Shown here: piece by piece, positions 8,921 through 61,622 of the stretch | Position numbering within the stretch: the first letter of the stretch is position 1 | Layout: each line of letters begins with the position of its first letter | Assembly (NCBI GenBank): GCA_045634505.1 | Contig: JAZRAH010000088.1 | Location: 6,474 to 70,473 of the forward strand | Source of the DNA: Elusimicrobiaceae bacterium | GTDB taxonomy: Bacteria; Elusimicrobiota; Elusimicrobia; Elusimicrobiales; Elusimicrobiaceae | Direction: 5' to 3' | DNA: 64,000 nt | Notes under the pieces: model-generated | Told to the model about the DNA's origin: nothing | The model's database searches: none | Seen by the model: only the letters and a program-made list of their open reading frames with translations | Translations under genes and position numbers: made by a program

Positions 8921-8926
8921 TATAAT
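8921..8926 (+). promoter_or_regulatory. -10 box of pilin cassette 1
   Basis: TATAAT, 6 nt before ACAATTTG; same spacing in copies 2, 3, 8, 9. Confidence 0.7.
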
Positions 8927-8932
8927 GTAAGT

Positions 8933-9160
8933 ACAATTTGATTCTGTTTTTGGAAGCGTTTAAGAAACGCAGTGCTTAGCAAAGCCCTCATTCCCTCCAA
9001 AAACAGCCGTTTAACAGGTACAAAATGACGACGGTCGTTTTGTACCTAGTGTTTGCCGTTCGCAAGGACGGCAAGCCGCGGCTGTTATGTTGGGACTGGG
9101 AATGAGGACCAATACTAACAGCCGTTTTTGCATGCGTTTTCCAAACCAGACAAATTGAAT
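8933..9160 (+). ncRNA. Structured pilin-leader element, copy 1
   Basis: ACAATTTGATTCTGTTTTTGGAA...TCCAAAAACAGCCG...CGGCTGTT...AACAGCCGTTTTT...TTCCAAACCAGACAAATTG; barcode CCTCATTCCC (8986-8995)/GGGAATGAGG (9098-9107). Confidence 0.85.
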
Positions 9161-9162
9161 TA

Positions 9163-9185
9163 TAGGTCAGGTGTTAGCCTGACAT
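9163..9185. repeat. GTAG-type REP-like palindrome
   Basis: TAGGTCAGG-N-CCTGACA; 7 copies in window (9163, 19088, 19165, 20330, 56433, 56604, 61664). Confidence 0.75.
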
Positions 9186-9202
9186 AAAAAAGGAGACGTA
9201 AC

Positions 9203-9982
9203 ATGCAAAACAAAAACCAACCCGTCATTGCGAGGAGCACCGCGACGAAGCAATCCACTCAAAACAAAAAAGGCTGTCATTCCCGAGTGTTTTTATCGGG
9301 AATCTACAACGCATGCCGTTGTAAAATTGAGGGAAATTCCTTATTAAATAGGTACGTGGAAGATCCCCGACAGAAACCCTCGGGGATGACCTCTTGTGTT
9401 ACAACAGCCCGCGGCTTTACCGCCCGCTCCGGTTTTACTCTTATGGAGCTGTTAGTTGTAGTTTTAATTATTGGCATTTTGGCCGCCGTGGCTGTGCCAC
9501 AATACCAAAAAGCGGTTAAAAAAGCGCGGCTAGCAGAATTTATTTCTACCATTTCTTCTATTGAAAAAGCGGTGGATGTATGGCTTTTGGAAAATGGCGG
9601 ATACCCTGAAGATTGGGTGTGGTTTACTAGTAAGGAGAACCCTTCCCTTACTTATTCTTCGCTAGATATTAAGATGTCTTGTGCGAAAGAGGATCGCTCA
9701 TCTTGTTACACCCGGCTGGGAGGATGGGATATCTATTGTATGCCTTCTTCCTGCGGTATCAATTTATATACAACTTATGATGAAAATGGAGCAACTACAA
9801 ATACTTGGTTAGATAAGGCGTTTATTTCTGTACGCAAACGCCCGTCCGATGAAAATATATGGAAAATAGAAAGTGCTACCCAAAATACAAAATTAGTTTG
9901 CCAAGTGTGGAAGGAAACTTTTGGTACGTCTCATATGCGTGCAAGTTTTAAAGAGACGTGTGCGGAATTAGGGGTAGAATAA
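9203..9982 (+). CDS. Type IV pilin-like protein 1 (PilE-type) with 77-aa leader
   Basis: G|[28 protein letters not shown]; SD AGGAG; Cys-containing variable C-terminus. Confidence 0.9.
   Translation: MQNKNQPVIARSTATKQSTQNKKGCHSRVFLSGIYNACRCKIEGNSLLNRYVEDPRQKPSGMTSCVTTARGFTARSGFTLMELLVVVLIIGILAAVAVPQYQKAVKKARLAEFISTISSIEKAVDVWLLENGGYPEDWVWFTSKENPSLTYSSLDIKMSCAKEDRSSCYTRLGGWDIYCMPSSCGINLYTTYDENGATTNTWLDKAFISVRKRPSDENIWKIESATQNTKLVCQVWKETFGTSHMRASFKETCAELGVE
9223..9390. repeat. CGTC-type REP half plus REP doublet inside prepilin leader 1
   Basis: CGTCATTGCGAGGAGC..GACGAAGCAATCC (9223-9256) and TGTCATTCCCGAG...CTCGGGGATGAC (9275-9390). Confidence 0.8.
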
Positions 9983-9994
9983 GCACATAAAAAT

Positions 9995-10022
9995 GCCCCG
10001 AAACAATTAGTCTCGGGGCGTT
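9995..10022. terminator. Putative terminator between pilin 1 and mscL
   Basis: GCCCCGA/TCGGGGC stem between convergent stops. Confidence 0.6.
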
Positions 10023-10037
10023 AAACTATATACAACT

Positions 10038-10499
10038 TTATTTAATTTCGCTCGTGCAGTGCGGGCAGCGGGTGGCTTCAAGGGCAATTTCGCTGCAGCA
10101 GAACGGGCACTTTTTGGTAGTGGGCGCGGCGGCCGGAGCCGGGGCCGGTTTGTTGAGTTTATTGATGGCTTTAATCAAAATGAAAATACAGAAAGCCACA
10201 ATCACAAAGCTAATAATAGCGTTTAAAAATAAACCTAAGTTAAGGGTGGTAGCACCGGCGGCTTGCGCGTCGGCCATGGTGGCAAAATTGCGGGCGCCTT
10301 CTTTGCCGGCTTTAATGACAATAAACCAGTTGGAAAAATCCACTTGGCCTAACAGTAAGCCCAAAGGCGGCATGAGTACGTCGGCCACCATAGAGTTTAC
10401 AATTTTGGTAAATGCGCCGCCAATGATGATACCAACTGCCATATCAATTACGTTGCCGCGCATGATGAATTGCTTGAATTCCTGAGCAATACCTTTCAT
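10038..10499 (-). CDS. mscL: Large-conductance mechanosensitive channel with C-terminal Zn ribbon
   Basis: EFKQFIMRGNVIDMAVGIIIGGAF; CPFC...CPHC tail. Confidence 0.96.
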   Translation of the reverse strand: MKGIAQEFKQFIMRGNVIDMAVGIIIGGAFTKIVNSMVADVLMPPLGLLLGQVDFSNWFIVIKAGKEGARNFATMADAQAAGATTLNLGLFLNAIISFVIVAFCIFILIKAINKLNKPAPAPAAAPTTKKCPFCCSEIALEATRCPHCTSEIK

Positions 10500-11213
10500 T
10501 TATTTCTCCTTTGTTACTAATTTTGCCGCCTCAAAAAGAGGCGTGTACAAATCGTTTTGGACCGGATATTGAATTTCTTTGCGGTCTGTTTTTTCTGTAA
10601 ACGTTACCGGGGCGTTGGTAACCACGCACAAGGGGCATTGTTCGTCTGCCTCTCCCATAAGAAATGCGCAGGCAGTAGCTAAACTATCCGCCACATTTAC
10701 AAGCGTAGTTTGGAGCGGTTTGCCAAAAATGTCCGGCGTGCCGCGCAAGTCTTTTACGCCCTTAAACCCTGCATACCCCACCGCGCCTGCAATTACACCC
10801 GCGCGCAGGGGCAAAATCATACTGTCTGTAATCACAATCCCTAAATGTTGCACGTGCCAATTTTGCGTTAACATTGTGCGTAATTCTTCGGCCGCGGCAT
10901 AACAGTCGGGCAATAAGATAAGCAGCCCGTTTGCATTACTTTCGTCAATCCCGGCATTGGTCATTACCATACCGTCTTTAATCGTCAGCCACGCAAGCGG
11001 CGTTTTAAGGGCCGCCGTGCTGTGCTGCTTAATGAGCGTTTCTTTTTGGGCCGTGCTTGTGTAAGGGACAGTATTATTTTTCCAAAGAGCTACCACTTTT
11101 GAGGACACGGCAAGTACGGTGTTTTCTTCCGCGTGCGTAATATGGCGCGTAATGAAGGCCGGTAAATTGTCCCCGGGTTTAAACACGGCTGTATGTACGG
11201 CGGTTACCTGCAT
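10500..11213 (-). CDS. F420-0:gamma-glutamyl ligase (CofE)-like protein
   Basis: LAVSSKVV, NAGIDESN, VITDS, D.RG.PDIFG, DSLA.A..MGEADE..P. Confidence 0.8.
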   Translation of the reverse strand: MQVTAVHTAVFKPGDNLPAFITRHITHAEENTVLAVSSKVVALWKNNTVPYTSTAQKETLIKQHSTAALKTPLAWLTIKDGMVMTNAGIDESNANGLLILLPDCYAAAEELRTMLTQNWHVQHLGIVITDSMILPLRAGVIAGAVGYAGFKGVKDLRGTPDIFGKPLQTTLVNVADSLATACAFLMGEADEQCPLCVVTNAPVTFTEKTDRKEIQYPVQNDLYTPLFEAAKLVTKEK

Positions 11214-12313
11214 GCGTCCTCAAACGGGGCTACAAAACTGCGGAACACTTCGTTAGCCAGATAGAGCCCCTCTTCACTTAATTTTACCTTTTTATGGTCC
11301 TGCGTGAGAAGCCCGTTTTGGACATGCTTTTCAATAGCGGGGCCAAAAAATTCTTTTTGCTCATCGGAAAGATAAAGTCCGTCCAACAGCCGCAACGCTA
11401 AGAGTAGCCCTTCCCCTACGCGGGCTTTGCCGGTAAGCTGTTCGGAAAAAACAAGCGGAGATTTGCCGTTTAACATATCAAAAATATAGTCTTTTAGTAC
11501 CGGCGTGTTTTGCCGACGCACCCCGCCCCGGTACGAGGCCGCCGCACAGCCCAAGCCTACATATTCGGCACTTTGCCAGTAAAGGGTGTTGTGTTTGGCT
11601 TCGTAACCGGGCAAGGCATAATTAGAAATTTCGTAATGATGATAACCGGCGGCGGTTAAAAAATCGTGCGTGTGTTCCAGCATTTGGCGCATTAAGGCGT
11701 CGTCACACACTACCCCGCGCGTGTAAAAAGGCGTTCCTTCTTCTATTTGAAGCCCATAGACCGACAGGTGTTGCGGGTGCAAATCAACCAGGCGGTGCAA
11801 ACCGGAGGAGAAACTTGCTAACGTTTGACCGGGCAGGCCGGCTATTAAATCTACATTGATGTTTTCAAAACCGCCCGCCTGTGCGTCCGCATACACTTGC
11901 AAAAACTGCGCGGCCGTGTGGATGCGGCCTAGGGTTTTAAGTTCGTCATCATGAAAACTTTGCAGCCCCATGCTTAGGCGGTTAAAACCCAACTGGCGAA
12001 GGGCGGCAATTTTTTGGGGGGTTAAACTTTCCGGGTTGGCTTCAAAGGTACTTTCTAAAAAAGCGGGCACGGGTTGGAAGTTTTTGCGGATAATTTTAGC
12101 CAGGCGTTGGAGCTGGTGGACCGCCAATAAACTGGGTGTGCCGCCCCCTACGTACAAGGTTTGGCAGGCAATTTCTTTATTTAGCGCGGCTTCGTGCGAT
12201 AGGGCGGCCAGGTAATCGTCTAACAGCAATTCTTGGCCGGGGTAGGAGGCAAAGTCACAATAGAGACATTTTTGTTTACAAAAAGGGATGTGTATGTATA
12301 GGCCGCGTTTCAT
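11204..12313 (-). CDS. hemW: Radical SAM heme chaperone HemW (HemN-like)
   Basis: [30 protein letters not shown]. Confidence 0.9.
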
Positions 12314-15016: not shown

Positions 15017-15018
15017 AA

Positions 15019-18796: not shown

Positions 18797-19016
18797 ACAA
18801 TTTGATTCTGTTTTTGGAACCGTTTAAGAAACGGGGTGCTTTATAAGCTATCTTCGAGTCCAAAAACAGCCGATATTAGGCACACAAAGGCGACGGCCTG
18901 CGTGTGCCGAGTGTTTCCCGTCTTAATGACGGGAGGCTGCGGCTGTTGTCCTAAGACCTCGAAGATACTTAGTGTCAATAGCCGTTTTATGTGTTCCGGA
19001 TGACAGGAAAATTGAA
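18797..19016 (+). ncRNA. Structured pilin-leader element, copy 2
   Basis: TATACT 18785-18790, 6 nt, then ACAATTTGATTCTGTTTTTGGAAC; barcode TATCTTCGAG (18849-18858)/CTCGAAGATA (18958-18967). Confidence 0.85.
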
Positions 19017-19038: not shown

Positions 19039-19710
19039 ATGAACCTTACAAACAACACCCGGCGGGGGAAAACGCAAATCAAACGGGTAGGTCAGGCTCG
19101 GCCTGACAATGCCCCTAGCAAGAAGCATCCCTCAGTTCTTATAATGGGAAAGGACACCCTATGTTGTCAGGTAAAACCTGACCTACATAGCAGGCGCGGC
19201 TTTACGCTTATTGAGCTACTGGTAGTGGTACTCATCATTGGTATTTTGGCGGCGGTGGCGGTGCCACAATACCAAAAAGCAGTAAAAAAAGCGCGCTTGG
19301 CCCAACTGGATGTTACCATCAATGCCCTTACCAAAGCTATTGATCTGTACGTACTGGAAAATGGATACCAGGAAGTGTCTTTGACGGGAAATTCCGGTAA
19401 TAGCTTGGATTTAGATGTGCTATCGTGTTCATCCACCACGAGCTCTTCTTGTACGAATGAATATGGCGAGTGGGAAATTTACTGTTTAAGTGAAACCTCT
19501 TGTATGATTGGCATATATGGTCCTTATGGTACCACTCCATTTGCCGATGAACTTTATTTTTATAAATACCAAAATCAACACAATCAACAATGGGTATTTT
19601 CTATTTTGGAAGGTGACGAAGATAACCTAAAATTATTGTGTCAGTGGGCTAAGGATAAGTTTATTTTCGACAGTGATGCCACAAGTGCCTGCGCGGCAGT
19701 AGGTGTTTAA
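19039..19710 (+). CDS. Type IV pilin-like protein 2 with 54-aa leader
   Basis: G|[28 protein letters not shown]; SD AGGAG at 19026; two GTAG-type palindromes in leader (19088, 19165). Confidence 0.9.
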   Translation: MNLTNNTRRGKTQIKRVGQARPDNAPSKKHPSVLIMGKDTLCCQVKPDLHSRRGFTLIELLVVVLIIGILAAVAVPQYQKAVKKARLAQLDVTINALTKAIDLYVLENGYQEVSLTGNSGNSLDLDVLSCSSTTSSSCTNEYGEWEIYCLSETSCMIGIYGPYGTTPFADELYFYKYQNQHNQQWVFSILEGDEDNLKLLCQWAKDKFIFDSDATSACAAVGV

Positions 19711-20532: not shown

Positions 20533-20681
20533 ATCACCGAGTAAAGTAGTCAGTAGGCTGATTTGTCAGATTTGAGGCAAATTGGAACCGTAAGTTGCCC
20601 GAAGCTGTACTGATAGGTACTGCGAGTGGCAAGTCGGTTTCAAGTTGCCCAAATGTGGCAAATGGTTGCCTGGAAAGCAAC
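20533..20681 (+). repeat. Rod-shaped structured repeat (family S), copy A
   Basis: ATCACCG-AG-TAAAGT...GATTTGTCAGATTTG...AGTTGCCC...GGCAAG...CCAAATGTGGCAAAT; homologous to 39279-39496 and 62351-62512. Confidence 0.7.
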
Positions 20682-20711
20682 GCACCCCAAAACTTTGTGT
20701 TTTGGGGTGCG
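20681..20711. terminator. Strong hairpin, probable terminator
   Basis: CGCACCCCAAAAC-loop-GTTTTGGGGTGCG. Confidence 0.6.
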
Positions 20712-20744
20712 TGCGTTAAAAAGTTACTTCACCGGGGTCGTTAA

Positions 20745-26397: not shown

Positions 26398-26630
26398 ACA
26401 ATTTAATCTGTTTTTGGAAGCCGAAAGGCACCGTTGCCAAGGGCAACAATTATCACTCCAGAAACAACCCAATCGGGTGCAAGGGAAACGGACTAATTAC
26501 CCGTTTATCTTGCGCCAAATGTTTTCCGTTTTGCGGAGAGCTGCGGCTGTTTGTGTTTCATGGGTGTGATAATTCATGGGGCTATGCAGCCGTTGTTTTA
26601 TGGGTGCGTTTTCCAAACGGACAAATTGAA
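26398..26630 (+). ncRNA. Structured pilin-leader element, copy 3
   Basis: TATACT 26386-26391 + 6 nt; barcode AATTATCAC (26448-26456)/GTGATAATT (26566-26574); ends TTCCAAACGGACAAATTGAA. Confidence 0.85.
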
Positions 26631-26654: not shown

Positions 26655-27308
26655 ATGAATCACAAAAACACCCGGCGGGGTAATACGCAACAAGTAATAA
26701 ATAAAAATTGTCATTCCAAATTTAATTTGGAATCTCACCACTTTTTACTGCCTAAGGTGAGATCCCGTATCAAGTACGGGATGACGGGCTTATTAAATAA
26801 CGGCGGGTTTACCCTCATTGAGCTATTAGTAGTGGTGTTGATTATTGCTATTTTGGCGGCGGTGGCACTGCCGCAGTATCAAATGGCTGTACTGAAGAGC
26901 CGGGCCGCACAAATGATACCGCTAGTGCGTAGTCTGTCTGTGGCACAAGAAACCTATTATTTAGCCAATGGACAATATGCAGAGACTTTTGATGAATTAG
27001 ATGTGTCTTTGCCTGGCAAAACAAATCAATCTTGTGTTTATCTGCGTCATGGGGACTGTGTGGTTTTGAAAAATGGGTGGGAAATCAATTTCACAGGGGA
27101 TACTCACAAGGGGGGCGTAGAGGCATATTTACCAGACAGCGGTTTTAAAATTACGTCATACTGGTTAAATACAGATGATGATATAGACAGAATTGGCCTA
27201 TACGGGAATATAACTTGTGTCGTATTTCCTGGATTAAACGAACAAGGGAAACGGATATGTTCCAACTTGGGAAGGCCAACCTCTAATGAAAGATTTTTTA
27301 AACTGTAA
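26655..27308 (+). CDS. Type IV pilin-like protein 3 with 51-aa leader
   Basis: G|[28 protein letters not shown]; REP doublet 26709-26786 in leader. Confidence 0.9.
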
Positions 27309-35412: not shown

Positions 35413-36066
35413 TTAATAGTTGCAATGTTTGTCAGGCCCACATATACTTTTGCATAAATTTTGGAAATTTTCTCCTCCGGCATAGCACCAAAAACGGTTG
35501 GGTTGATATTTCTTTTCATTAAAAGGGAATGCATATTCTAATGAAAGAAGGCCTGAATCTGTGGGTTGGTATATGCCGGCGGCTCTGTCTTTTCCGATGT
35601 TTGAAGAATTGTAATAAGCGCGGTTACAATCTAAGGTAAAGTATTTTTTTTCGTTTACTAAGTGTTTTTTTCCGTCTAATTCATACTCGTTAGGGGCATC
35701 TATGCCTAATTCTTCACAATTGGCGGCGTATGTGCCGTTCTCCAAATAGTAAACATCTTGCATTTCTTTGATGTGTTTTACAAGCAGGAGAAGTTCGGTT
35801 ACACGGGATTTATCCACCGCCTTTTGATATTGCGGCACCGCCACCGCCGCCAAAATACCAATGATGAGAACAACGACCAATAGTTCAATGAGCGTAAAGC
35901 CCCGCGCTGTTGTTCTATGAAGTGTCATCCCCGAGTGTCTCTGTCGGGGATCTCCTCCTTGCGCGTCGTTAAAAGCGGTAGGGATTCCCGACAACATTCC
36001 TCGGGAATGACCCTTTTTATTTACTACTGGTTGCGTACTCCCCCGCCGGGTATTTTTATTTTGCAT
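35413..36066 (-). CDS. Type IV pilin-like protein 4 with 56-aa leader
   Basis: G|[28 protein letters not shown]; REP doublet 35923-36011 in leader. Confidence 0.9.
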   Translation of the reverse strand: MQNKNTRRGSTQPVVNKKGHSRGMLSGIPTAFNDAQGGDPRQRHSGMTLHRTTARGFTLIELLVVVLIIGILAAVAVPQYQKAVDKSRVTELLLLVKHIKEMQDVYYLENGTYAANCEELGIDAPNEYELDGKKHLVNEKKYFTLDCNRAYYNSSNIGKDRAAGIYQPTDSGLLSLEYAFPFNEKKYQPNRFWCYAGGENFQNLCKSICGPDKHCNY

Positions 36067-36089: not shown

Positions 36090-36316
36090 GGGCCCGGCAT
36101 AAAAAACGGCTTATTATACCGAGCTCAACAAGGTCGCTCTATATAACAGCCGTAGCTGCCGTTTTTGTAAACGGCAAACATTCAGCACAAAACAATGGGG
36201 TTATAAGGCCCATCATCTTGTGCTTTATACAGCTGTTTTTGACCTTGTTGAAAGTTGCTTTCGCAGCTGACCCGCATGCTTATCATGCGGTTTCAAAAAC
36301 AGTAAAAAACAATTGT
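36090..36316 (-). ncRNA. Structured pilin-leader element, copy 4
   Basis: Minus strand ACAATTG..CTGTTTTTGA...TCAAAAACAG...CGGCTGTT...AGCCGTTTTTT; 11-bp barcode at 36241-36251/36125-36135. Confidence 0.82.
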
Positions 36317-38366: not shown

Positions 38367-38597
38367 ACAATTTGATCTATTTTTGAGCCGTATGTAGAAT
38401 ACGGGTCTGCTTTGAAAAAAGCACCCATCGAAGTCAAAAATAGCCGATAAATAGGTGCAACGGGACCGTACATCCTGTTGCACCGAGTGTTTCCCATTTT
38501 TGCCTTGTGCAAAAGTGGGAACCTACGGCTATTATATTAGGTATCTTCGATGGGGCCTGGTATAAAAGCCGTTTTTGCATGCGCTTGGGATAGGTCA
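38367..38597 (+). ncRNA. Structured pilin-leader element, copy 5
   Basis: Compensated CTATTTTTGA/TCAAAAATAG and TAGCCG/CGGCTA; barcode CCCATCGAAG (38424-38433)/CTTCGATGGG (38545-38554). Confidence 0.85.
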
Positions 38598-38611: not shown

Positions 38612-39274
38612 ATGCAAAACAAAAATGTAACTATAAAAAATAATGATTATTCCCAACAAAAATACTCGGGAATAACTATTACAAGAAACTGTCGTCATGC
38701 TGAACTCGTTTCAGCATCTAGTCGTTATGATAACAACCAGACCCTGAAACAAGTTCAGGGTGACGGCAGTAGCGGCTTTACGCTCATTGAGCTGTTAGTT
38801 GTGGTACTTATTATTGGCATTTTGGCCACCGTGGCGTTGCCACAATACCAAAAAGCGGTGTATAAAAGCCGTGCCGTGGAAGCAGTAACTGTGCTAAAGG
38901 CACTTGTGGATGCGCAAGAAATTTATTACTTAGCCAATGGGGAATATACGGATGATATTTCAAAATTAGACGTAAATATCCCGGCTGAGTTAATAAAATC
39001 TTCCTGGGCGGCAGAGCCCCTATTTGAAGACAAGTATTCTTATACATGTGCTAGAAAGAGGGAATGTGGCGCCAGCGCAAAAAATAATAATTTGCCCGAT
39101 TTTCAATTTAATTTTAGGCATAGGGACGATGTGAATGCGGGAAAGTTCTATTGTAATTTAGGGGCCGGTAATTCTAAAACAGATATGGCTAAATCTATTT
39201 GCCAGAGCATGGGCCGTTTGGATGAAACCCGTACGGAAGCGTGGGCTGTGGGTAAGTATTTTATTATCAATTAA
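38612..39274 (+). CDS. Type IV pilin-like protein 5 with 55-aa leader
   Basis: G|[28 protein letters not shown]; REP doublet 38693-38765 in leader. Confidence 0.9.
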   Translation: MQNKNVTIKNNDYSQQKYSGITITRNCRHAELVSASSRYDNNQTLKQVQGDGSSGFTLIELLVVVLIIGILATVALPQYQKAVYKSRAVEAVTVLKALVDAQEIYYLANGEYTDDISKLDVNIPAELIKSSWAAEPLFEDKYSYTCARKRECGASAKNNNLPDFQFNFRHRDDVNAGKFYCNLGAGNSKTDMAKSICQSMGRLDETRTEAWAVGKYFIIN

Positions 39275-39278
39275 ACAC

Positions 39279-39496
39279 ATCACCGCGTACAATTTACAGT
39301 GAGCTGATTTTCGCACAACCTGTACTAAAACACCACGCTTCCCCAAGCACCAGATTTATAGAAGATAAGATGATTTTTCAGATTTGAGCCGTATTTGTGG
39401 GGCTAGTTGCCCGCATAGGCGTGTCTGAATGACACGTCAAGGGCAAGGGACCGCAAAGACGGCCAAATGTGGAAAATTGTATCGCTGGCAAGCAAC
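39279..39496 (+). repeat. Rod-shaped structured repeat (family S), copy B
   Basis: ATCACCG-CG-TACAAT...GATTTTTCAGATTTG...AGTTGCCC...GGGCAAG...CCAAATGTGGAAAATTGTATCGCT. Confidence 0.7.
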
Positions 39497-39558
39497 AAAA
39501 TTTAAACATCTTTCGTGTTTAAATTTTGTGTGCTCAAAGAAATTTCGCGGTGTGTTTT

Positions 39559-45267: not shown

Positions 45268-45342
45268 TGGTGGGCAGTACAGGATTTGAACCTGTGACCT
45301 TCCGCGTGTGAGGCGGACGCGCTACCGCTGCGCCAACTGCCC
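45268..45342 (-). tRNA. tRNA-Val(CAC)
   Basis: GGGCAGTTGGCGCAGCGGTAGCGCG TCCGC CTCACAC GCGGA...GGTTCAAATCC...CTGCCCACCA cloverleaf with encoded CCA. Confidence 0.95.
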
Positions 45343-47083: not shown

Positions 47084-47198
47084 AGTGGGTTTGGGCTCCT
47101 GTAATAAGGGAAAATAACAACTTACTAATAGTATATAAAATTGGGAGAGGTTGCTTTTGTTTATTTTTGTATAATAAAACTTGCCCAGTAAAGGGTTG

Positions 47199-47407
47199 CA
47201 ATTTTTTGTTTATAGATTATTTGTTGAAGTGCGGGGCAAGCCCGTGCCGAGCAAAATAGGGGACACCCTATGAGCATGTTAGAGATCATCAAATAATCGC
47301 CTTGCTTTGGCCTGCCTCTTATGGGGCAGGCTGGCGGCGGTTATTGTTTAAGGGTCATCTCTAACAGCTCTTAACTAAGATTGCCGCTTTTTTGTTGGGT
47401 AAATTAA
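47199..47407 (+). ncRNA. Structured pilin-leader element, copy 6 (divergent subtype)
   Basis: GATTATTTGTTGA/TCATCAAATAATC; GCGGCGGT/ATTGCCGC+T6; barcode TGTTAGAGAT (47277-47286)/ATCTCTAACA (47357-47366). Confidence 0.78.
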
Positions 47408-47425: not shown

Positions 47426-48007
47426 ATGAAAAAAGAAAATGTAATTGTCATTTGTCCCCCTTGTGGGGAAAACGTCGCGTTAGCGACAAAAAGAGGGGCC
47501 AATAAAGTATTACCTATTTTGCCCCTCCTACCCCGCCTTACGGCGGTACTCCCTCCACAAGGGAGGGAGATAACAGCCCGTGGCTTTAAGCTCATTGAGC
47601 TCTTAGTCGTGGTACTCATTATTGGCATATTAGCCGCCGTAGCCGTGCCACAATATCAATTAGCTGTAGAAAAATCGCGCGCAGAGACAGCCCCTTCTGT
47701 ATTAAAGACCATCTGGACAGCCCAGCAAATATATTATCTTGCCAATGGTACATACGCTTCTACATTTGATGTTTTAGATATAGAAATACCGCAAAATGAA
47801 TATTTTACCTATCAGCAAGACAGTATGTCTGTTTTTGCCGTTAGTACACGAAAAAATTACACAATATCTTTTCGCTTTAATCGACAAATTTATGAATGGA
47901 TTGTATGTTATGCTACTTTAGACACTGATGTTGAACAAGCCAGACGGATTTGTAAAAATTTAGGGGCAGATATTAGTAGTGGAGATCGTTGGCCAATCGT
48001 AAAATAG
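47426..48007 (+). CDS. Type IV pilin-like protein 6 with 53-aa leader
   Basis: G|[28 protein letters not shown]; C/G-rich palindromic doublet 47455-47570 in leader. Confidence 0.9.
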   Translation: MKKENVIVICPPCGENVALATKRGANKVLPILPLLPRLTAVLPPQGREITARGFKLIELLVVVLIIGILAAVAVPQYQLAVEKSRAETAPSVLKTIWTAQQIYYLANGTYASTFDVLDIEIPQNEYFTYQQDSMSVFAVSTRKNYTISFRFNRQIYEWIVCYATLDTDVEQARRICKNLGADISSGDRWPIVK

Positions 48008-50105: not shown

Positions 50106-50660
50106 ATGGAAAAGACATTTACATTAAAAACTGTTAAAAAAGTAATCGGGCTGGAAGAAACCCCCAGCACGCAAGGGTTGGCGCGCAGTTTGGCCGCCAC
50201 AGAGACCGACGGCACACTTATTTTGGCGTGCCACCAAACGCAAGCCAAGGGCAAAGAGGGGACCTCATTTTACGCGGGTGAGGGCGGCGTTTATTTTACG
50301 CTTATTTTGGACCCGCAAACTAACATTTCTTCGCAAAAATTAACGCTGGCCATGTCTAACGCGATTAGTGATGTGATTTACAGCGTACTGGGCATTAAAA
50401 CCAAGCTCTCTAAAACGGGCGATATTTTATGTTACGACAAATCCGCACGCACCTGGAAAAAATGTGCCGGCATCTTGGCCGAGCAAACCGAAACGGGAAC
50501 ATGGCTTTTAGGCGCGGGGATTTATTTAAATAACCGCCTGCCCATTGGGCTACGCACCACGTGTATTAGCCTTAAAGCTATTTTAGGCAGTGAGACCAGC
50601 AAAGAGCTGTTTTTAGATGAAGTTTTAAACAACTTTTGGAAGGAATACGCGTTTTTGTAG
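50106..50660 (+). CDS. Biotin-protein-ligase-like catalytic domain with degenerate motifs
   Basis: PSTQ, QT.AKG, GGVYFTLIL, KKCAGIL, GAGIYLN. Confidence 0.7.
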   Translation: MEKTFTLKTVKKVIGLEETPSTQGLARSLAATETDGTLILACHQTQAKGKEGTSFYAGEGGVYFTLILDPQTNISSQKLTLAMSNAISDVIYSVLGIKTKLSKTGDILCYDKSARTWKKCAGILAEQTETGTWLLGAGIYLNNRLPIGLRTTCISLKAILGSETSKELFLDEVLNNFWKEYAFL

Positions 50661-50688
50661 AACGGAGGAAAGGCCGCTGAACATATAC

Positions 50689-50884
50689 ACAATTTGATGA
50701 TTTGTTGGAAGTAAGGGGCAAGCCCTTACTGCGCCGGGCGCAACTTGCGCAAGGCACATACGAGTCCGCAAATATCGTTGTTTTTCACCCGCCCCGTAAG
50801 GGGCGGGGGAGCGACGATTTGCACGGGTTACTCGTATGGCTCAGGCAATCGTCGTTTTTTGTCTGTGCCCGAAGAAACTATCAT
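50689..50884 (+). ncRNA. Structured pilin-leader element, copy 7 (divergent subtype)
   Basis: ACAATTTGATGATTTGTTGGA/TCCGCAAATATC; CGACGATT/AATCGTCG+T6; barcode CATACGAG (50757-50764)/CTCGTATG (50831-50838). Confidence 0.8.
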
Positions 50885-50897
50885 ACGAGGTGCACTT

Positions 50898-51642
50898 ATG
50901 CACATGTTTAGTCATACCCGGCGGGGTTTCACGCAAGACAGTCCTTGTCAAAATAAACGTCATTCCCGAGTGTCGTTATCGGGAATCCCCACCTTAGTCC
51001 CTCAAAATGGAGAAGATCCCCGATTACAGATCTCGGGGATGACGCTTTATAGAATAACAGCTCGTGGCTTTTCTCTACGCCGTCATCCTGAACTTGATTC
51101 AGGATCTTCAACGCTTGCCGTTGTCGTTCATAAACAGCGTGCGTGGAAGATGCCAAATCAAGTTTGGCATGACAACTTTACTGAATAATGGCGGGTTCAC
51201 CCTCATTGAACTCTTGGTCGTAGTACTCATCATTGGTATATTGGCGGCAGTGGCTTTGCCACAATATCAAAAAGCGGTTATGAAAAGTAGGCTCGGGCAG
51301 GTTCACAGTGTGCTGCGCACGTTGCGTACGGGTATAGATAATTATATATTGGCCAACGGAGCCGATGGGACAATCTTTTTAGGATATGATGAGGATAAAA
51401 CCTCGTTGTTAGACATTAACTTTGGTACCCAATTTGATTGTTCTGACCATGGAGACGATATTGCTGAAGGCTGTTTGCTTCACGATTTTGTGTATAGAGC
51501 CACCACTGATTATGTGGAAGCATACGATAAGGAACAACGTTTTTTAATAGGATATGACAACCGGGGTGAACAAGGTTGGCAGCCCAGTTGTGCTTCAGGA
51601 GGAGAATGGGCATGGATTTGTGATTATTGGAATAGTTTATAA
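50898..51642 (+). pseudogene. Type IV pilin-like gene 7; leader frame stops at 51188, pilin frame is +1 (possible restart at ATG 51169)
   Basis: SD GAGGTG then MHMFSHTRRGFTQ; two REP doublets 50958-51044 and 51081-51173; G|FTLIELL in the other frame. Confidence 0.75.
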
Positions 51643-51645
51643 GTA

Positions 51646-56393: not shown

Positions 56394-56625
56394 AGATCCC
56401 CGATAAAGACTCTCGGGGATGACGCTAATAGATGTCAGGCTTACACCTGACCTATAAGATATCAGCCAAACCATTCCGGCCGTCATTGCGGGGAACGAAG
56501 GGACGAAGCAATCTTATAAACAACATAGATTGCCGCGCTTACGCTCGCAATGACGACAACGACAGATCCCCGACAAAGACACTCGGGAATGACACTTATT
56601 TAATGTCAGGCATAGCCTGACCTAC
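56394..56625. repeat. BIME-like mosaic of REP-like palindromes
   Basis: AGATCCCCG..CGGGGATGAC (56394, 56564), TGTCAGG..CCTGACCTA (56433, 56604), CGTCATTGCG...CGCAATGACG (56481-56555). Confidence 0.82.
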
Positions 56626-56667: not shown

Positions 56668-56896
56668 ACAATTTGATTCTGTTTTTGGAACCGTATGCAG
56701 AATACGGATAGCTTAAAAGGCCATAGACAGTCCAAAAACAGCCGATACTAAGGTGCAGACGGGGACTATAGCCCTGCCTGTGCCGAATTGTTTCCCGCTT
56801 GCTAAAAGCGGGGAACTACGGCTGTTATGGCGTGTCACTGTCTAGGCGTGCTATAGCAGCCGTTTTATGTGCGTTTTCAGGGCAGAGTAAAATTGA
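56668..56896 (+). ncRNA. Structured pilin-leader element, copy 8
   Basis: TGnTATAAT + 6 nt; 8921-8955 and 56656-56690 identical; barcode TAGACAGT (56724-56731)/ACTGTCTA (56837-56844). Confidence 0.85.
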
Positions 56897-56919
56897 AAAT
56901 TAAAACGAGAGGTAAACGT

Positions 56920-57597
56920 ATGAACAAAAGACTTGCCCGGCGGGGAATAACGCAACAATTAATCAAAGGCAATTCAGTAAATATCCCTGAACTTGTTTCA
57001 GGGTCTTCCACGCAAGCTGCTGTGCAACAAAGGCCCCAACGACAGGCGTTGAAGATGCCGAAACAAGTTCGGCAATATCCTTATTTAACAAGGGGCCAGG
57101 GATTTACCCTGATTGAACTGTTGGTGGTTGTGCTAATTATAGGTATATTGGCTGCTATTGCCTTGCCGCAATACCAAAAAGCAGTATTAAAAAGTAGAAT
57201 GGTGGATGCAATTGGTATGTTGCGTACCATACAAAAGGCACAAGAAGTATATTATTTAAATCATGGGAATTATACAACCGATTTAGATGATTTGGATATA
57301 GAAATTCCAGCAAATCAAAAAGCTACTTCTTTTGCATATTCAAGTGAGTCTTATCCTTTGCGGTATTTTTACAGTTGCCATGCAAATGGATTTTGCGTAG
57401 CAGCGGCGCAGGATGATAATTTACCAATTATAGAAGTACACATGATGCATGCATTTTCTGGTAACAACAATCAGATGACTTGTGCTGCATTTAAAAACAA
57501 TACTTATAACAAAAGTAATTTGGCGGAGAAGCTTTGCCGAAGTATGGGGCCTGTTAGCCACACATGGGAAGGTACGGTATATTATGAAATACGTTAG
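56920..57597 (+). CDS. Type IV pilin-like protein 8 with 61-aa leader
   Basis: G|[28 protein letters not shown]; degenerate REP doublet about 56980-57078. Confidence 0.9.
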   Translation: MNKRLARRGITQQLIKGNSVNIPELVSGSSTQAAVQQRPQRQALKMPKQVRQYPYLTRGQGFTLIELLVVVLIIGILAAIALPQYQKAVLKSRMVDAIGMLRTIQKAQEVYYLNHGNYTTDLDDLDIEIPANQKATSFAYSSESYPLRYFYSCHANGFCVAAAQDDNLPIIEVHMMHAFSGNNNQMTCAAFKNNTYNKSNLAEKLCRSMGPVSHTWEGTVYYEIR

Positions 57598-58590: not shown

Positions 58591-58592
58591 GG

Positions 58593-59798
58593 TTATTTGA
58601 CCTCCGTATGAATCATACCGTCTTGTACTTGTATGTAAATGGTTTCGCCGGGCGCGGTTTGTGCGACGTGGCTAATCACACTGCCGTCTGCCTTGCGCGT
58701 AATGCTGTAGCCGCGCTTGAGTACCGCTTGCGGGCCCAAGGCGTTTAATTTTTGACGCGCCACGTCAAAGCGGTGCGTAAATTGCGTTAGTTTTCCCGCC
58801 CAGGCATTTGTAAGGCGCAAGGAAAGTTCGTCCAGTTCTTGTTCTTTTTCCTGGGTGAGCGTTTGCGGGTTTTTAAAAACGCGTGCGTTAACCGCTAAAT
58901 CAAAGCGGCGTTTGAAGCGTTCGTAAAATAAAGACACGGCTTGGAGCATGCGCTTTTGCAAATTGGCAATTTGTTCGGCAGTGTTTTGCGAATTTTGCAC
59001 GACCAGTTCCGCCGCTGCCGAGGGAGTGGGGGCGCGCAAGTCGGCCACGAAGTCGGCAATGGTAAAATCCACCTCGTGCCCGACGCAGGAAATAACCGGG
59101 ATGTTACTGGCGTAAATCGCGCGGGCGACTATTTCTTCGTTAAAGGCCCACAAATCTTCCATACTGCCGCCGCCGCGGCCCACTAATAAAACGTCTAGCG
59201 CGGGGGAAAATTTATTCAAATCCGCAATGGCCTTAGCAATTTGCGGGGCGGCTTCGTCCCCTTGCACCAGGACGGGGGCAATAAACACTTCCAAATGCGG
59301 GTTGCGGCGTTTTAAGACGGATAAAATATCGCGCACCGCCGCGCCGGTGGGGGAAGTAACTACTCCAATGCGTTGGGGGTATGGAGGAATTTCTTTTTTA
59401 TGTTCCGGCGCAAATAACCCTTCGGCCTCCAGTTTTTGTTTGAGTTTTTCAAATTCCAGGTACAGGTTGCCTTTGGAAAGCGCTTCCACTTTTTTAACAA
59501 TAATTTGGTACTTGCCGGATTTGGCATATACGTCCAAACTGCCCCACACACGCACTTGCACGCCGTCTTGAAGTTCTAAAGAGTATTTGCGCGCATCCCA
59601 CTTGAACATGACGGCGGCTAAAAGGGCGTCGCGGTCTTTTAGGTTGAAGTAGAGGTGGCCGGAGGCGGACTCGCTTAAATTGCTGACTTCGCCTTCTACA
59701 AAAATGTCACGGAACACGCCAGCCATCATTTGTTTGACGGCCAGGGTAAGGGCGGTAACGGTAAAAACTTGACCTCTAAACGGGGCTTCGGGCTCCAT
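58593..59798 (-). CDS. xseA: Exonuclease VII large subunit
   Basis: GEVSN, SGHLYF.LKD, GVVTSPTGAAVRD, GRGGGS.EDLWAFN, APTPSAAAE. Confidence 0.96.
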   Translation of the reverse strand: MEPEAPFRGQVFTVTALTLAVKQMMAGVFRDIFVEGEVSNLSESASGHLYFNLKDRDALLAAVMFKWDARKYSLELQDGVQVRVWGSLDVYAKSGKYQIIVKKVEALSKGNLYLEFEKLKQKLEAEGLFAPEHKKEIPPYPQRIGVVTSPTGAAVRDILSVLKRRNPHLEVFIAPVLVQGDEAAPQIAKAIADLNKFSPALDVLLVGRGGGSMEDLWAFNEEIVARAIYASNIPVISCVGHEVDFTIADFVADLRAPTPSAAAELVVQNSQNTAEQIANLQKRMLQAVSLFYERFKRRFDLAVNARVFKNPQTLTQEKEQELDELSLRLTNAWAGKLTQFTHRFDVARQKLNALGPQAVLKRGYSITRKADGSVISHVAQTAPGETIYIQVQDGMIHTEVK

Positions 59799-61042
59799 TA
59801 TTCCCCCTTGAGTTCCTTGAGTTTTTGGATGAGGGCGGCCTCGCGCCCGAGGGTGCCCGGCTCAAAAAATTTCATGGGGCTGGGCATATAAAGCTGTTTG
59901 ACGTAATGGTTTTTAAAATCGTGTGCGTATTTGTATCCTTTGTTTTTCATGCCGCTACGCAGGTGGTCCGGCACCGGGCGGTAACGGCCCTCGCGCACTT
60001 CGGTAAGTGCTTTGTCCACGGCTAAATAAGCCGAGTTACTTTTGGGGCAACAAGCCACGTAAATAGCGGCGTGGGCCAGCGGGATGCGTACTTCGGGCAT
60101 GCCAAGCTCTTCGGCCGCGGAAAAGGCGGCTTGGGCAATCATTACAGCATAAGGCTCTGCCAAGCCGACGTCCTCGCACGCGCAAATTAAAATGCGCCGG
60201 GCAATAAAGCGCGGGTCTTCGCCACTTTCCAACATGCGCGCTAGCCAATAGACGGTGGCGTCCGGGTCGCTGCCGCGCATGGATTTGATAAAAGCGGAAA
60301 TAATATCGTAATGTTCGTCGCCTTTTTTATCGTAGCGCAGGTGTCGCTTTTGGATGCACTCCTGGGCAATTTCCAGCGTGATGTGCTTTTTGCCCTTTTT
60401 ATCGGGCGCGGTGGTAACAAAGGCAAGCTCGGCCGCGTTTAGCATTTTGCGGCTGTCGCCATTGGCCTGCGTGATCAAAAAATCAGCGGCATCGTCGTCA
60501 ATTGTGGCATTTTCGGCCGCGGCGGCGCGGGTTAAAATTTTAAGTAAATCTTTGTCGCCCAGCGGCTTAAATTCAAAGACCGAAAAGCGCGACAAAAGCG
60601 CGTTATTGATGTAAAAATAGGGGTTTTCGGTCGTAATGCCAATTAAAATAATATCGCCGCGCTCCACCGAGGGGAGCAAAACATCTTGCTGGGTTTTGTT
60701 AAAGTGGTGGATCTCGTCCAAAATAACGAGCGTGCGCCGCTCGTCAAACGACGGCGTAAGGGCGCGCTCTTTGGCTTCGGCCAGTACTTTTTTGAGGTCC
60801 GCTACACCGGCCGCGGCGGCGTTTAACTCCACCGTGTGCGCCTGTGTGCGCGAGGCAATATAGCGCGCCGTGGCAGTTTTGCCGCAACCGGGCGGACCAA
60901 AAAAGACAGCGGATTTAATCATGTCCGCCTCTAACAAACGCCGCAACATTTTGCCCGGGCCTAACAGGTGCGGTTGGCCTGCAAAATCTTCCAGTTTTTT
61001 AGGGGCTTGGCGCGCGGCCAAGGGCATGGTTTCGTTGGTCAT
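59798..61042 (-). CDS. rarA: Replication-associated recombination protein A
   Basis: [38 protein letters not shown]. Confidence 0.94.
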
Positions 61043-61329
61043 TTGGCTGTTTGGGCGGCTTTTAGTTTTAAAATAAGTTCGTCCAAGCGGTTTAGTTCTT
61101 CCTGGCGTTTGCCGCCTTCGTTTTGGCTTTTTAAGTAGGCTTGCGCGGCAAAGTGCAAAGCGGCGTGTAAGGCTTGTTTTAAAGTGTCAATTTCGCCGTC
61201 CATTTGCATTTGCAACATGTACGCCTCCACTTGCGAGGCCAGTTCGGTTAGCTCCATGCCGCCCAGGCCGGAGTTTTCTACCTCTAAGGGAATGCGTTTG
61301 ATTTCTACTTGGACAATGTCTTTTGCCAT
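61039..61329 (-). CDS. ZapA-like cell division protein
   Basis: V.I..I.L...L..LA..V...M...DTLK.ALHAAL pattern plus coiled coil. Confidence 0.55.
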   Translation of the reverse strand: MAKDIVQVEIKRIPLEVENSGLGGMELTELASQVEAYMLQMQMDGEIDTLKQALHAALHFAAQAYLKSQNEGGKRQEELNRLDELILKLKAAQTAK

Positions 61330-61377
61330 ACCTTTATTGTACTTTATTTCCCAACACTTTTTTACTATACTATAGAT

Positions 61378-61597
61378 ACAATTTGATTTGTTTTTGAGCC
61401 GTATGTGGAATACGGGTTGCTTCGTAAGAAGTATTCAGCAAAGTCAAAAACAGCTGAACAAAGGCACACAAAGGCGACGGCTGGCGTGTGCCGAGTGTTT
61501 CCTGCATTTTTTGTGGGGGCTGCGGCTGTTATGTTTGGTTACTTTGCTGAGACCTGACAAAGCAGCCGATTTTGTTGGCTCTGAATGGATCAATTGA
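61378..61597 (+). ncRNA. Structured pilin-leader element, copy 9
   Basis: TATACT + 6 nt; barcode TCAGCAAAGT (61435-61444)/ACTTTGCTGA (61541-61550); closing GAGCC/GGCTC compensation. Confidence 0.85.
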
Positions 61598-61622
61598 ATA
61601 GATAAACTAAGGAGCAAGCAAA

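Follow-up and report, generated by a model that had tools for sequence, protein, structure and literature searches.

Pilin-like genes and their leaders

The window, a stretch of 64,000 nucleotides (nt) of DNA from a gut Elusimicrobiaceae bacterium that was analysed as a whole, contains exactly nine prepilin motifs (G/F[TK]L[IM]...) by six-frame scan, and all nine open reading frames (ORFs) concerned passed the NCBIfam model TIGR02532 for the prepilin N-terminal domain. Pilin-like gene 4 lies on the minus strand (35413-36066) and the others on the plus strand: gene 1 (9203-9982), with a 76-residue N-terminal extension ahead of G/FTLMEL, gene 2 (19039-19710), gene 3 (26655-27308), gene 5 (38612-39274), gene 6 (47426-48007), gene 7 (51169-51642), with the sequence MTTLLNNGG/FTLIEL, gene 8 (56917-57597) and gene 9 (61623-62276).

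It had originally been predicted that each of nine pilin-like genes is preceded by a copy of a structured leader. This is borne out by the motif scan, by TIGR02532 and by a search of the window with covariance model R2 (filters off), in which nine of the nine prepilin-type genes carry their own copy. Model R2 found exactly nine leader copies, at 196 to 28 bits (E 5e-40 to 1.6e-4), and reproduced the nine predicted start coordinates. Those of type 1 are copy 1 (8933-9130, starting at the predicted +1 and ending with the U-run of the terminator; 195.9 bits, E 5e-40), copy 2 (18797-18990; 158.9 bits), copy 3 (26398-26598; 102.5 bits, with one A-C mismatch in R2:R3), copy 4 (36101-36316, minus strand; 141 bits), copy 5 (38367-38577; 147.8 bits), copy 8 (56668-56868; 142.2 bits), for which the minimum-energy (MFE) fold was computed, and copy 9 (61378-61574; 129.8 bits). 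Copy 6 (47198-47392; 27.9 bits, E 1.6e-4) and copy 7 (50689-50860; 38.7 bits, E 9e-7) form a divergent subtype, type 2, of which copy 7 is a variant; apart from copy 4 all copies are on the plus strand. The next-best matches of the model were antisense and fell on the same nine elements (E >= 0.02), which leaves the window without a tenth copy. For the 14-mer TCCAAAAACAGCCG, 5 matches with at most 2 mismatches were counted, against 0.99 expected by chance.

The leader is roughly 200 nt long and in all nine window copies lies on the strand of its gene, 34-73 nt upstream of it. The ORF nearest to leader copy 7 is open to 51188 in a frame other than that of pilin-like gene 7, which may therefore be frameshifted. 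The same unfiltered search placed no leader copy before a non-pilin gene in the window.

Organisation of the leader

In copy 1 a -10 box TATAAT (8921-8926, plus strand, as are all parts of this copy) lies 6 nt ahead of the leader start, and boxes at this spacing are also present in copies 2, 3, 8 and 9; it was thus correctly predicted that five copies start 6 nt after TATAAT or TATACT. Of the family members, 125 have a sufficient stretch of upstream sequence, and in most of these a T-rich tract and a TATAAT/TATACT ending 6 nt before the element are conserved; at copy 2 a promoter scan independently found TTCACA-17-TATACT with a TG motif. Each pilin-like gene probably has its own sigma-70-type promoter, with the predicted start at or near ACAATTTG.

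R1 (CTGTTTTTGGA, 8944-8954) is the 5' strand of helix P1, the putative anti-antiterminator, its partner being R2 or, after read-through, R5. Inside P1 lie the hairpins P1a (8956-8970) and P1b (8974-8985). These are followed by the var strand (CCTCATTCCC, 8986-8995), complementary to var' further downstream, and by R2 (the 14-mer given above, 8996-9009), which can pair with R1 to form P1 or with R3 to form the antiterminator. The P2 hairpin (9016-9047), a conserved junction AGTGTTT (9048-9054) and the P3 hairpin (9055-9072) occupy the centre. R3 (CGGCTGTTATGTTGGGA, 9079-9095) has R2 (antiterminator) or R4 (terminator) as partner, and var' (GGGAATGAGG, 9098-9107) is the partner of var and is located apically in the terminator hairpin. 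R4 (CCAATACTAACAGCCG) with the T-run TTTTT at 9125-9129 (together 9109-9129) makes up the 3' half of the predicted intrinsic terminator. R5, the 3' strand of P0 (CGTTTTCCAAACCAGACAAATTG, 9135-9157), would pair with the 5' end and R1 in a read-through transcript.

The order of blocks in the original prediction is right for seven copies. Copies 6 and 7 keep the architecture but differ in the sequences of the pairing strands, and in them a single hairpin replaces P2, the RARTGTTT junction and P3. In copy 6, R1 (GATTATTTGTTGA) and R2 (CATCAAATAATCGCC) are followed by this single central hairpin, R3 (GGCGGCGGTTATTG) and R4 (GATTGCCGC) with T6; the corresponding strands of copy 7 are R2 (CCGCAAATATCGTTG), R3 (GCGACGATTTGC) and R4 (GCAATCGTCG), again with T6.

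Covariation of the alternative helices

The strands can be combined into two states: state A, in which R1:R2 (P1) stands beside R3:R4 (the terminator), and state B, in which R2 and var pair with R3 and var'. The prediction had listed the correct blocks within one static structure and had missed that these pairings are mutually exclusive. Structure statistics were taken over 126 copies from about 32 Elusimicrobiaceae gut and rumen genomes. For state B, to which the alignment (A5) was fitted, 93.7% of cells are paired (n=126), compared with 68.8% after shuffling and at most 43% with slid partners, double changes occur at 46 of 50 pairs and the covariation score is 0.665 versus 0.188. State A plus var:var' is 95.2% paired and P1 94%, while P1a (98.7%) and P1b (96.3%) show a compensatory change at all pairs. 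The var:var' helix is 96% paired, with all four Watson-Crick pair types at every position. Within type 1, R2, R3 and R4 look more conserved than they are, since the pattern of the genome scan fixed those blocks. R2 position 143 covaries with both of its alternative partners: R1 has A only where R2 has U (9/9), and the same is true of R3 (7/7). The covariation of the stems that had been claimed is therefore upheld, the paired fraction being far above both controls, as is the abundance of G-U pairs; these outnumber A-C pairs 380:83 in the family copies, which indicates that the structure belongs to the sense RNA.

Type 2 provides a further view of the same switch. Its R1-R4 sequences are unlike those of type 1, yet both alternative states are kept; in an unfitted MAFFT alignment RNAalifold gives P1 and the terminator with 16 compensated pairs, and R2:R3 is 100% and var:var' 87% paired.

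Predicted terminator and order of folding

The terminator hairpin (~18 bp) has a mean dG of -21.2 kcal/mol, and at least 5 T occur within 8 nt past it in 122 of the 126 copies. A simple terminator scanner did not call the leader hairpins, owing to its loop limit of 3-8 nt. As the predicted intrinsic terminator ends 34-73 nt before the start codon, the gene can be reached by read-through only.

In approximate energy-model predictions the two states have similar mean energies (E(A) -79.8, E(B) -76.3 kcal/mol). By prefix folding, P1 is in the minimum-energy fold after R2 in 109 of 126 copies, and the antiterminator is the minimum after var' in 117. Once R4 has been added, the minimum-energy fold includes P1 in 75/126 and the terminator in 80/126, and the antiterminator is still the minimum in 38/126, including window copies 6 and 7. 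With 40 nt more, the antiterminator is found in 87/126 and R1 is paired with the post-terminator region in 88/126. The predicted path of the growing transcript thus runs from P1 to the antiterminator, then to P1 plus terminator, and finally to the antiterminator plus R1:R5; R1:R5 duplexes average -14.7 kcal/mol compared with -9.8 kcal/mol for shuffled sequences.

A promoter of its own, a strong predicted intrinsic terminator and many copies per genome would also be expected if the terminated transcript of ~195 nt were a functional sRNA with only a secondary link to pilins. We regard this as very unlikely: orientation and spacing to the start codon (34-73 nt in the window) are fixed, several copies leave no room for a second promoter, and a covarying antiterminator and R5 make sense only if read-through matters.

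Distribution among relatives

The leader family occurs in at least 30 related species, with dozens of copies per genome. No Rfam family matched the leader, even at E <= 1-10, in line with the earlier impression that it fits no riboswitch consensus, and no paper describing the family was found; a transcription-attenuation leader is a known kind of device and this family of leaders is new. Linkage to pilins is not 1:1 across relatives: about 15% of the copies there lie before glycosyltransferases (GT2/GT8/GT9), an OMP-like gene, a gene for a nuclease lipoprotein and others, so that the claim that the leader precedes no other gene is true of the window and not of relatives. The elements before these non-pilin envelope genes are the same full-length element, which supports a regulatory module. 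Some pilins of relatives have poly-T promoters and not the leader.

It might be argued that the element is a MITE or a DNA-level recombination site that marks pilin cassettes without any RNA function. It is multicopy, it has terminal inverted repeats (about 25 nt) made up of its 5' end and R5/P0, it is found before non-pilin genes, and the whole unit of promoter, leader and pilin is present or absent between close relatives. Correia elements of Neisseria, which are regulatory MITEs, are likewise multicopy, of about 200 nt, bounded by terminal inverted repeats and located beside surface-protein genes. The leader differs from such elements in its fixed position and orientation: across the family it is co-oriented with the downstream gene and sits just after a -10 box. 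The copies are of considerable age and have diverged to about 60-70% identity, showing compensatory changes and a one-strand G-U excess, and orthologous copies are conserved between species. A target-site duplication was not seen at the one indel examined and viral contigs gave no match. Such an origin for the pattern is accordingly hard to credit, even more so than an sRNA.

Probable nature of the switch

The presence of terminator, antiterminator and anti-antiterminator alternatives places the leader in a known mechanistic class, and it is probably a 5'-leader transcription attenuator with these three states. The computation shows all the helices, that they exclude one another, that the states are nearly equal in energy and in which order the folds become most stable; we infer a start at the predicted site, actual termination and a signal that biases the choice. 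The original reading of a transcribed cis-regulatory RNA is supported by the -10 box, sense-strand covariation, the position of the terminator and the absence of an Rfam match.

In the proposed mechanism the first ~200 nt of RNA would carry four mutually complementary strands. In state A, R1:R2 would form P1, the anti-antiterminator, around P1a and P1b, leaving R3:R4 to form a hairpin of ~18 bp followed by UUUUU, an intrinsic terminator at which RNA polymerase would stop with the pilin gene off. In state B, a single long antiterminator helix would form between R2 with the copy-specific var and R3 with var', the terminator would be blocked and polymerase would continue into the gene, which begins 34-73 nt downstream. 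R5, which follows shortly after the U-run, could then pair with R1 and the 5' end, which would lock state B and leave the mRNA 5' end base-paired.

Our preferred guess is a factor, a protein more probably than a small ligand, that acts in trans on the 5' domain (R1 / P1-P1a-P1b). It may lock P1 and increase termination, following the logic of PyrR or the S-box, or it may keep R1 single-stranded and so favour read-through. Either option, if true, would place some glycosyltransferase genes, together with dozens of pilin genes, in one co-regulated surface regulon.

A small-molecule riboswitch, responding for instance to a cyclic dinucleotide or nucleotide sugar as an envelope/adhesion signal, is possible but a good deal less probable. 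The aptamer could be the P1/P1a/P1b three-way junction (an OFF switch) or the R2:R3-closed three-way junction with P2, P3 and the GARUGUUU / ARRCYA strands (an ON switch). The topology is that of OFF riboswitches, in type 1 about 15 of the unpaired junction nucleotides around P2/P3 are highly conserved and the P1a loop NAGA is conserved as well, and in Clostridioides difficile the pilin gene pilA1 is under the control of a c-di-GMP-II riboswitch. There is, however, no Rfam aptamer match, and a var strand that is free in sequence within the P1 multiloop would be unusual for a ligand pocket. Neither P2 nor the conserved junction is present in type 2 copies, whose P1a is also different, but these copies still show the switch and remain linked to pilins; no loop or junction sequence is conserved between the two types, which argues against one sequence-specific ligand pocket.

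The lack of a universal sequence-specific site common to both subtypes would suit a factor-independent kinetic attenuator, in which refolding from the antiterminator to P1 plus terminator would compete with polymerase speed or pausing and so determine the fraction of read-through. The read-out of such a device would be NTP pools, growth rate or NusA/NusG activity; alternatively it would merely give each gene a fixed expression level through its own var:var' helix. The states are near-isoenergetic, the minimum-energy fold is predicted to change three times while the RNA is made, and R1, the junction and R3 contain U-rich tracts. Type-1 P1a, the P2 stem and the junction strands are nevertheless conserved beyond the needs of pairing, suggesting recognition by something, and we consider this explanation doubtful, slightly more so than a riboswitch.

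Comparison with known systems

The nearest parallel to the attenuator proposed here is found in the PyrR-controlled pyr attenuators of Bacillus subtilis, which have the same three-tier 5' leader topology and a default co-transcriptional path to the antiterminator; no leader peptide is present in either system. The anti-antiterminator of pyr attenuators is stabilised by protein. The leader is not known to resemble the PyrR binding loop, and it differs in its unrelated gene class, in an antiterminator extended by a copy-specific 10-bp helix, in a fifth strand that captures R1 after read-through and in its dozens of copies per genome. The S-box (SAM-I) and other OFF riboswitches show the same competition, in which the helix that closes a multi-helix 5' domain (in the leader, P1 with P1a and P1b) is opposed by an antiterminator and this by a terminator; they are set apart by the leader's want of an Rfam aptamer match, its sequence-free junction strand var and its two subtypes without common conserved pocket residues. 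In trp-type attenuators (regions 1:2, 2:3, 3:4) four consecutive strands follow the same logic of alternative pairing, whereas the leader has no leader peptide ORF and its R1 begins about 12 nt past the predicted start, so that ribosome stalling cannot be the sensor. The C. difficile pilA1 riboswitch is likewise a leader RNA that gates type IV pilin transcription via a terminator. The leader differs from it in fold and sequence, with no Rfam match, and the pilA1 case concerns a single gene whereas the leader family is attached to a pilin repertoire.

Nine leaders and nine pilin genes

Exactly nine reading frames in the window, eight on the forward strand and one on the reverse, carry the prepilin motif G|F-[TK]-L-[IM] (followed by 13 protein letters not given here). 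All nine of these pilin-like ORFs scored above the cut-off of TIGR02532, the NCBIfam prepilin N-terminal domain, and the gene of copy 4 was also matched by Pfam N_methyl. The products have a cleavage/methylation motif followed by a hydrophobic helix, as is the case for type IV pilins and pseudopilins, and their likeness to named pilins extends over the N-terminal ~60 aa only.

A covariance model built from leader copy 1 alone found eight of the nine leaders in the window and nothing else. A family model built from 126 homologues and searched with filters off found all nine, with scores from 196 down to 28 bits, and its runner-up matches were antisense hits on the same nine elements. On the forward strand these are copies 1 (8933-9130), 2 (18797-18990), 3 (26398-26598), 5 (38367-38577), 6 (47198-47392), 7 (50689-50860), 8 (56668-56868) and 9 (61378-61574), with copy 4 (36101-36316) on the reverse strand. 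The number of copies, their coordinates and their one-to-one pairing with pilin genes in the window, all put forward in the original prediction, were thus borne out by the family model and the motif scan. The neighbouring genes are unrelated ones with housekeeping roles, namely GDPD, MscL, SHMT, cytidine deaminase, RsmE, a MiaB-like enzyme, GH3, MarC, UvrB, a receiver domain, an OMP, TlyA and PheS, so that each pilin gene stands alone behind an upstream element of its own. At copy 7 the ORF that follows the leader (MHMFSHTRRGFTQ..., 50897-51188) is in a different reading frame from the pilin domain (51169-51642), which has an ATG of its own (MTTLLNNGG|FTLIEL); this gene is either frameshifted or has its start codon farther downstream.

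Strand anatomy

The arrangement of strands is best described for copy 1, where all features lie on the forward strand. The -10 box TATAAT (8921-8926) is followed by a conserved 5' end, ACAATTTGATT, from 8933, strand R1 (CTGTTTTTGGA, 8944-8954), the P1a and P1b hairpins (8956-8985), a copy-specific strand, var (8986-8995), and R2 (TCCAAAAACAGCCG, 8996-9009). The P2 hairpin (9016-9047), the junction AGTGTTT (9048-9054) and the P3 hairpin (9055-9072) precede R3 (CGGCTGTTATGTTGGGA, 9079-9095), var' (9098-9107), R4 (CCAATACTAACAGCCG, 9109-9124), a U-run TTTTT (9125-9129), a fifth strand, R5 (9135-9157), and finally a Shine-Dalgarno sequence and the ATG at 9203. R1 can pair with R2 to form P1 around P1a, P1b and var, or R2 and var can pair with R3 and var' in one long helix around P2 and P3, and these pairings are mutually exclusive. 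The second of them is also excluded by pairing of R3 with R4, which gives a long hairpin with the U-run directly 3' of it. From these exclusions two states follow, state A with P1 and an intrinsic terminator and state B with the antiterminator. The structured leader had been correctly described beforehand, although the mutually exclusive strand pairings had been overlooked.

Covariation and subtypes

Alignments of the nine window copies by MAFFT alone were too poor for structure counts, and the single-sequence and then the family covariance model were used instead. In the 126 leaders so aligned, the alignment being fitted to state B, 93.7% of cells in state B were paired as compared with 68.8% after shuffling and at most 43% when partners were slid by 1-3 columns. 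Changes on both sides were seen in 46 of the 50 pairs and the covariation score was 0.665 against 0.188, in agreement with the stem covariation first noted by eye. State A together with var:var' was 95.2% paired, P1 alone 94%, and var:var' 96% with every pair type present. The R2:R3 core (8 bp) was 99% paired and its 5-bp extension 81-82%, the conservation of R2, R3 and R4 being in part by construction because the genome scan pattern fixed much of these blocks.

Three lines of evidence escape both the alignment and the pattern biases. At alignment column 143, where R2 has C or U, R1 carries A only with U in R2 (9/9) and so does R3 (7/7). The var:var', P1a, P1b, P2 and P3 helices lie outside the scan pattern and show all pair types. 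The third is a divergent form of the leader, type 2, comprising window copies 6 and 7 and four copies in fetched loci of relatives, all six of which precede pilins. The sequences of R1-R4 in type 2 differ from those of type 1 (the remaining window copies) but both states are kept; when five type-2 copies were aligned with MAFFT alone, RNAalifold predicted P1 and the terminator with 16 compensated pairs, and in that alignment R2:R3 was 100% and var:var' 87% paired. The leader thus contains a conserved alternative helix into which the 5' strand of the terminator is drawn (an antiterminator) and a competitor for the 5' strand of that helix (an anti-antiterminator). G-U pairs outnumber A-C pairs by 380 to 83, which indicates that the structure is read on the strand co-oriented with the genes. 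The var:var' helix (columns 124-133 with 354-366 of the family alignment; 8986-8995 with 9098-9107 in copy 1) uses the four Watson-Crick pairs about equally, with a G-U share of only 1.7% as compared with 8-9% in P1b, P2 and P3. It might be supposed that var is a hypervariable 'barcode' generated by active diversification, but var strands were identical in orthologues that were 76-94% identical elsewhere.

Terminator, switch and promoter

The R3..R4 hairpin has a mean energy of -21.2 kcal/mol and ~18 bp over the 126 copies, in 122 of which at least five T fall within the next 8 nt. This arrangement, a G+C-rich hairpin and then a U-run between promoter and start codon, is that of a predicted intrinsic terminator. 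A simple terminator scan, which allows loops of 3-8 nt, missed the leader terminators with their longer loops, and constrained folding was therefore used. With the switching helices enforced, the mean energies were -79.8 kcal/mol for state A and -76.3 kcal/mol for state B, a difference of 3.4 +/- 7.4 kcal/mol, so that the two folds are close to isoenergetic.

Prefix folding showed that the minimum-energy structure alternates as the transcript lengthens. P1 was the minimum-energy fold in 109 of 126 transcripts extending through R2 and the antiterminator in 117 of 126 extending through var', while through R4 the minimum-energy fold contained P1 in 75 and the terminator in 80. After a further 40 nt the antiterminator was present in 87/126, and in 88/126 R1 was paired with sequence immediately 3' of the U-run. 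Window copies 6 and 7 passed from P1 to the antiterminator and were unchanged after R4. The complementarity of R5 to R1 and the 5' end gave a mean duplex energy of -14.7 kcal/mol as compared with -9.8 for shuffled sequences and z < -2 in 69 of 124 duplexes, and the full-length fold of copy 1 has the same nested arrangement with R5. A symmetric four-strand exchange in which R1 would pair with R4 was rejected, the energy of this pairing (-4.6 kcal/mol) being close to that of shuffles (-4.5) and the pairing appearing in only 31 of 126 constrained folds.

A T-rich tract and TATAAT/TATACT, ending six bases ahead of the element, are present in most members of the family, and the -10 box that had been placed exactly 6 nt ahead of five window copies was found there. 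For copy 2 a consensus promoter scan gave TTCACA-17-TATACT and a TG motif. The distance from U-run to start codon is 34-73 nt in the window, and from this spacing the gene would be expressible only by read-through from this promoter.

Comparison with known classes

A search of the whole window with the families of Rfam 15 (including c-di-GMP-I/II, c-di-AMP, T-box, SAM, ANTAR RNA and JUMPstart) at gathering thresholds returned only a tRNA-Val. This tRNA-Val (CAC), at 45268-45342 on the reverse strand, is the sole RNA gene found in the window by Rfam and ARAGORN. At permissive thresholds no match overlapped copy 1 at E <= 10 or copies 6-9 at E <= 1, and there was no match at three related loci, which agrees with the earlier impression that no known riboswitch family was matched. 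No description of the element was found in the literature searched.

The leader shares the logic of anti-antiterminator, antiterminator and terminator with the PyrR-controlled pyr leaders, and the same switching logic is found in OFF riboswitches such as the S-box. The pairing logic is also that of the trp attenuator, but a leader peptide is lacking: R1 begins ~12 nt after the predicted +1, neither an ATG nor an ORF is conserved, and by reading the ORF within the P2 loop of copy 1 is missing from copy 2. ANTAR leaders have two tandem hairpins with hexaloops bearing A1 and G4, the second hairpin overlapping the terminator. The P1a loop of the pilin leader is a conserved N-A-G-A penta- or hexaloop, but the P1b loop is unconserved, neither hairpin overlaps the terminator and Rfam gave no match. 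Antitermination of the RfaH/ops (JUMPstart) type is argued against by the absence of the ops element GGCGGTAGnnTG from both strands of the window. It is well supported that the leader is a regulatory device of a known kind which forms a new family, and not a categorically new system; of the 'candidate new regulatory system' originally proposed, the novelty of the family stands and that of the device does not.

Proposed mechanism and sensor

From its predicted folds, the element is most likely a leader that acts by transcription attenuation and combines an anti-antiterminator, an antiterminator and a terminator. Transcription would start at or near ACAATTTG, the predicted 5' end. In state A, P1 would leave R3 and R4 to form the terminator and transcription is predicted to stop at the U-run before the gene; in state B the antiterminator would allow read-through into the gene, and R5 may then lock the read-through state, leaving the 5' end of the mRNA base-paired. 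For RNA biology this would be a clean natural five-strand attenuator, an orphan switch whose predicted stable fold alternates with transcript growth.

Conserved in type 1 leaders are unpaired nucleotides around P2 and P3 (GA-R-UGU-U-U and ARRCYA), the P1a hairpin (CCGUAU-NAGA-AUACGG) and the 5' end. In type 2 both P2 and this junction are missing and P1a is different, so that only the architecture and a U/G-rich 5' strand are common to both types; this makes a single small-molecule pocket less likely. With low confidence we lean towards a trans-acting factor that recognises the 5' domain or R1, although the leader may instead be a kinetic device independent of any factor. A more far-reaching reading, which we regard as improbable even with its two forms taken together, is that dozens of pilin paralogues are gated one by one by an orphan sensor class, acting either as a new riboswitch or a new protein-RNA switch that responds to an envelope or host-association signal, or as a self-contained kinetic 'flip-flop' in which the private var:var' helix of each gene sets its probability of read-through. 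Were it true, then with this and the poly-T promoters described below, gut Elusimicrobiaceae would have a variable surface repertoire under control encoded in RNA.

Distribution and regulon

A genome scan with a pattern of three conserved blocks, using one genome per species, found at least 111 loci. Among the matches listed (~32 assemblies, from rumen, horse, mouse, bird and human gut) all but one were in Elusimicrobiaceae/Elusimicrobiales; a single Acidobacteriota match was without a model match and is attributed to chance. Full-length leaders (173 and 166 bits) were seen in L002, a fetched locus labelled uncultured Spirochaetes UMGS352 that also carries an Elusimicrobiaceae-type pilin, and in L023, labelled Muribaculaceae; these are probably wrong bin labels or contaminant contigs. 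A phage origin was considered, but viral contigs gave no hit to the scan pattern.

In the fetched loci and the window together, a leader lies within 1 kb upstream of 121 of 143 evaluable pilin motifs, and ~120 of ~145 leader matches precede pilins. The strict pairing originally claimed therefore holds in the window but not in relatives. Other leaders precede glycosyltransferases of families GT2 (4), GT8 (3) and GT9 (1), an OMP-like protein, a nuclease lipoprotein, a DMT_6 membrane protein, a TPR protein and unknowns, which suggests that the element is a portable module for surface-related genes and not an intrinsic part of pilin genes. Leaderless pilins are mostly found behind another promoter, CTTGAC-N2-3-T(11-13)-GATATTCT/GTTATGAT, and then a short leader, the T run forming the -35/-10 spacer (loci L005, L009, L014, L036, L037, L044, L080, L089 and L100). 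A homopolymeric promoter spacer is the usual signature of slipped-strand phase variation. No poly-T promoter tract of this kind was found in the window.

The region 48.6-57.7 kb of the window is syntenic with a contig of the rumen MAG RUG10714 (92-96% identical). The promoter, leader and pilin unit of copy 7 (~50657-51643) is missing at the syntenic site of this relative (locus L028, ~93% identical), where about 35 nt take its place, and at the same site L089 has a pilin with a poly-T promoter. No target-site duplication was seen at the copy-7 indel. The leader has terminal inverted repeats like those of a MITE, its 5' end and R1 being complementary to R5/P0, but a recently mobile MITE is argued against by its fixed position and orientation upstream of a co-oriented gene, by old compensated copies and by the lack of target-site duplication. 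Paralogous leader copies are ~60-70% identical.

The Elusimicrobiaceae of gut and rumen are almost uncultured and have large sets of pilin-like genes without known regulation. The leader, with more than 120 examples, strong covariation, two subtypes, a wide spread in one poorly studied gut lineage and many copies per genome, ties most of these genes and several glycosyltransferase and outer-membrane genes into one regulon. It offers a handle on surface control in the form of one RNA to probe, pull down or mutate, and if used in annotation, the model would flag promoters and 5' UTRs by the dozen in each genome of the family.

Other repeats near the pilin genes

The prepilin leader peptides in the window are 40-76 aa long as compared with the usual length of about 10. 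Insertions are present at 9276-9397, 35924-36018, 50959-51050, 19161-19187 and 38648-38683, where palindromic repeat units (among them GTCATTCCCGAG...CTCGGGGATGAC, a GTCAGG..CCTGAC hairpin and an 'AELVSASS..LKQVQ' type) follow in frame after a canonical start M-x-x-K-N-T-R-R-G and the ..RG|FTLIEL cleavage site is re-created behind them. The same repeats are also intergenic, at 56395-56430 and 56565-56600. Relatives mostly have short prepilin leader peptides, M..KNTRRG|FTLIEL.

A second conserved non-coding element of ~180 nt, without an Rfam match, is found at 39358-39537, 62362-62565 and 20545-20720, with 22 further nhmmer matches in 18 fetched loci (for example L087 2082-2261 and L042 2326-2504). 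It lies 30-350 nt past a pilin stop codon on the same strand in 13 of 22 evaluable copies. Part of it, CCAAA..AAAATTGT, resembles R5, but a role as trans-acting partner of the leader was rejected, since its duplex energies with the leader 5' end were no better than those of shuffles (z ~0). In locus L013 (~80-863, reverse strand) no gene comes after the full-length leader; in its place are a partial second leader and two copies of the ~180-nt element, an arrangement that looks like a decayed cassette.
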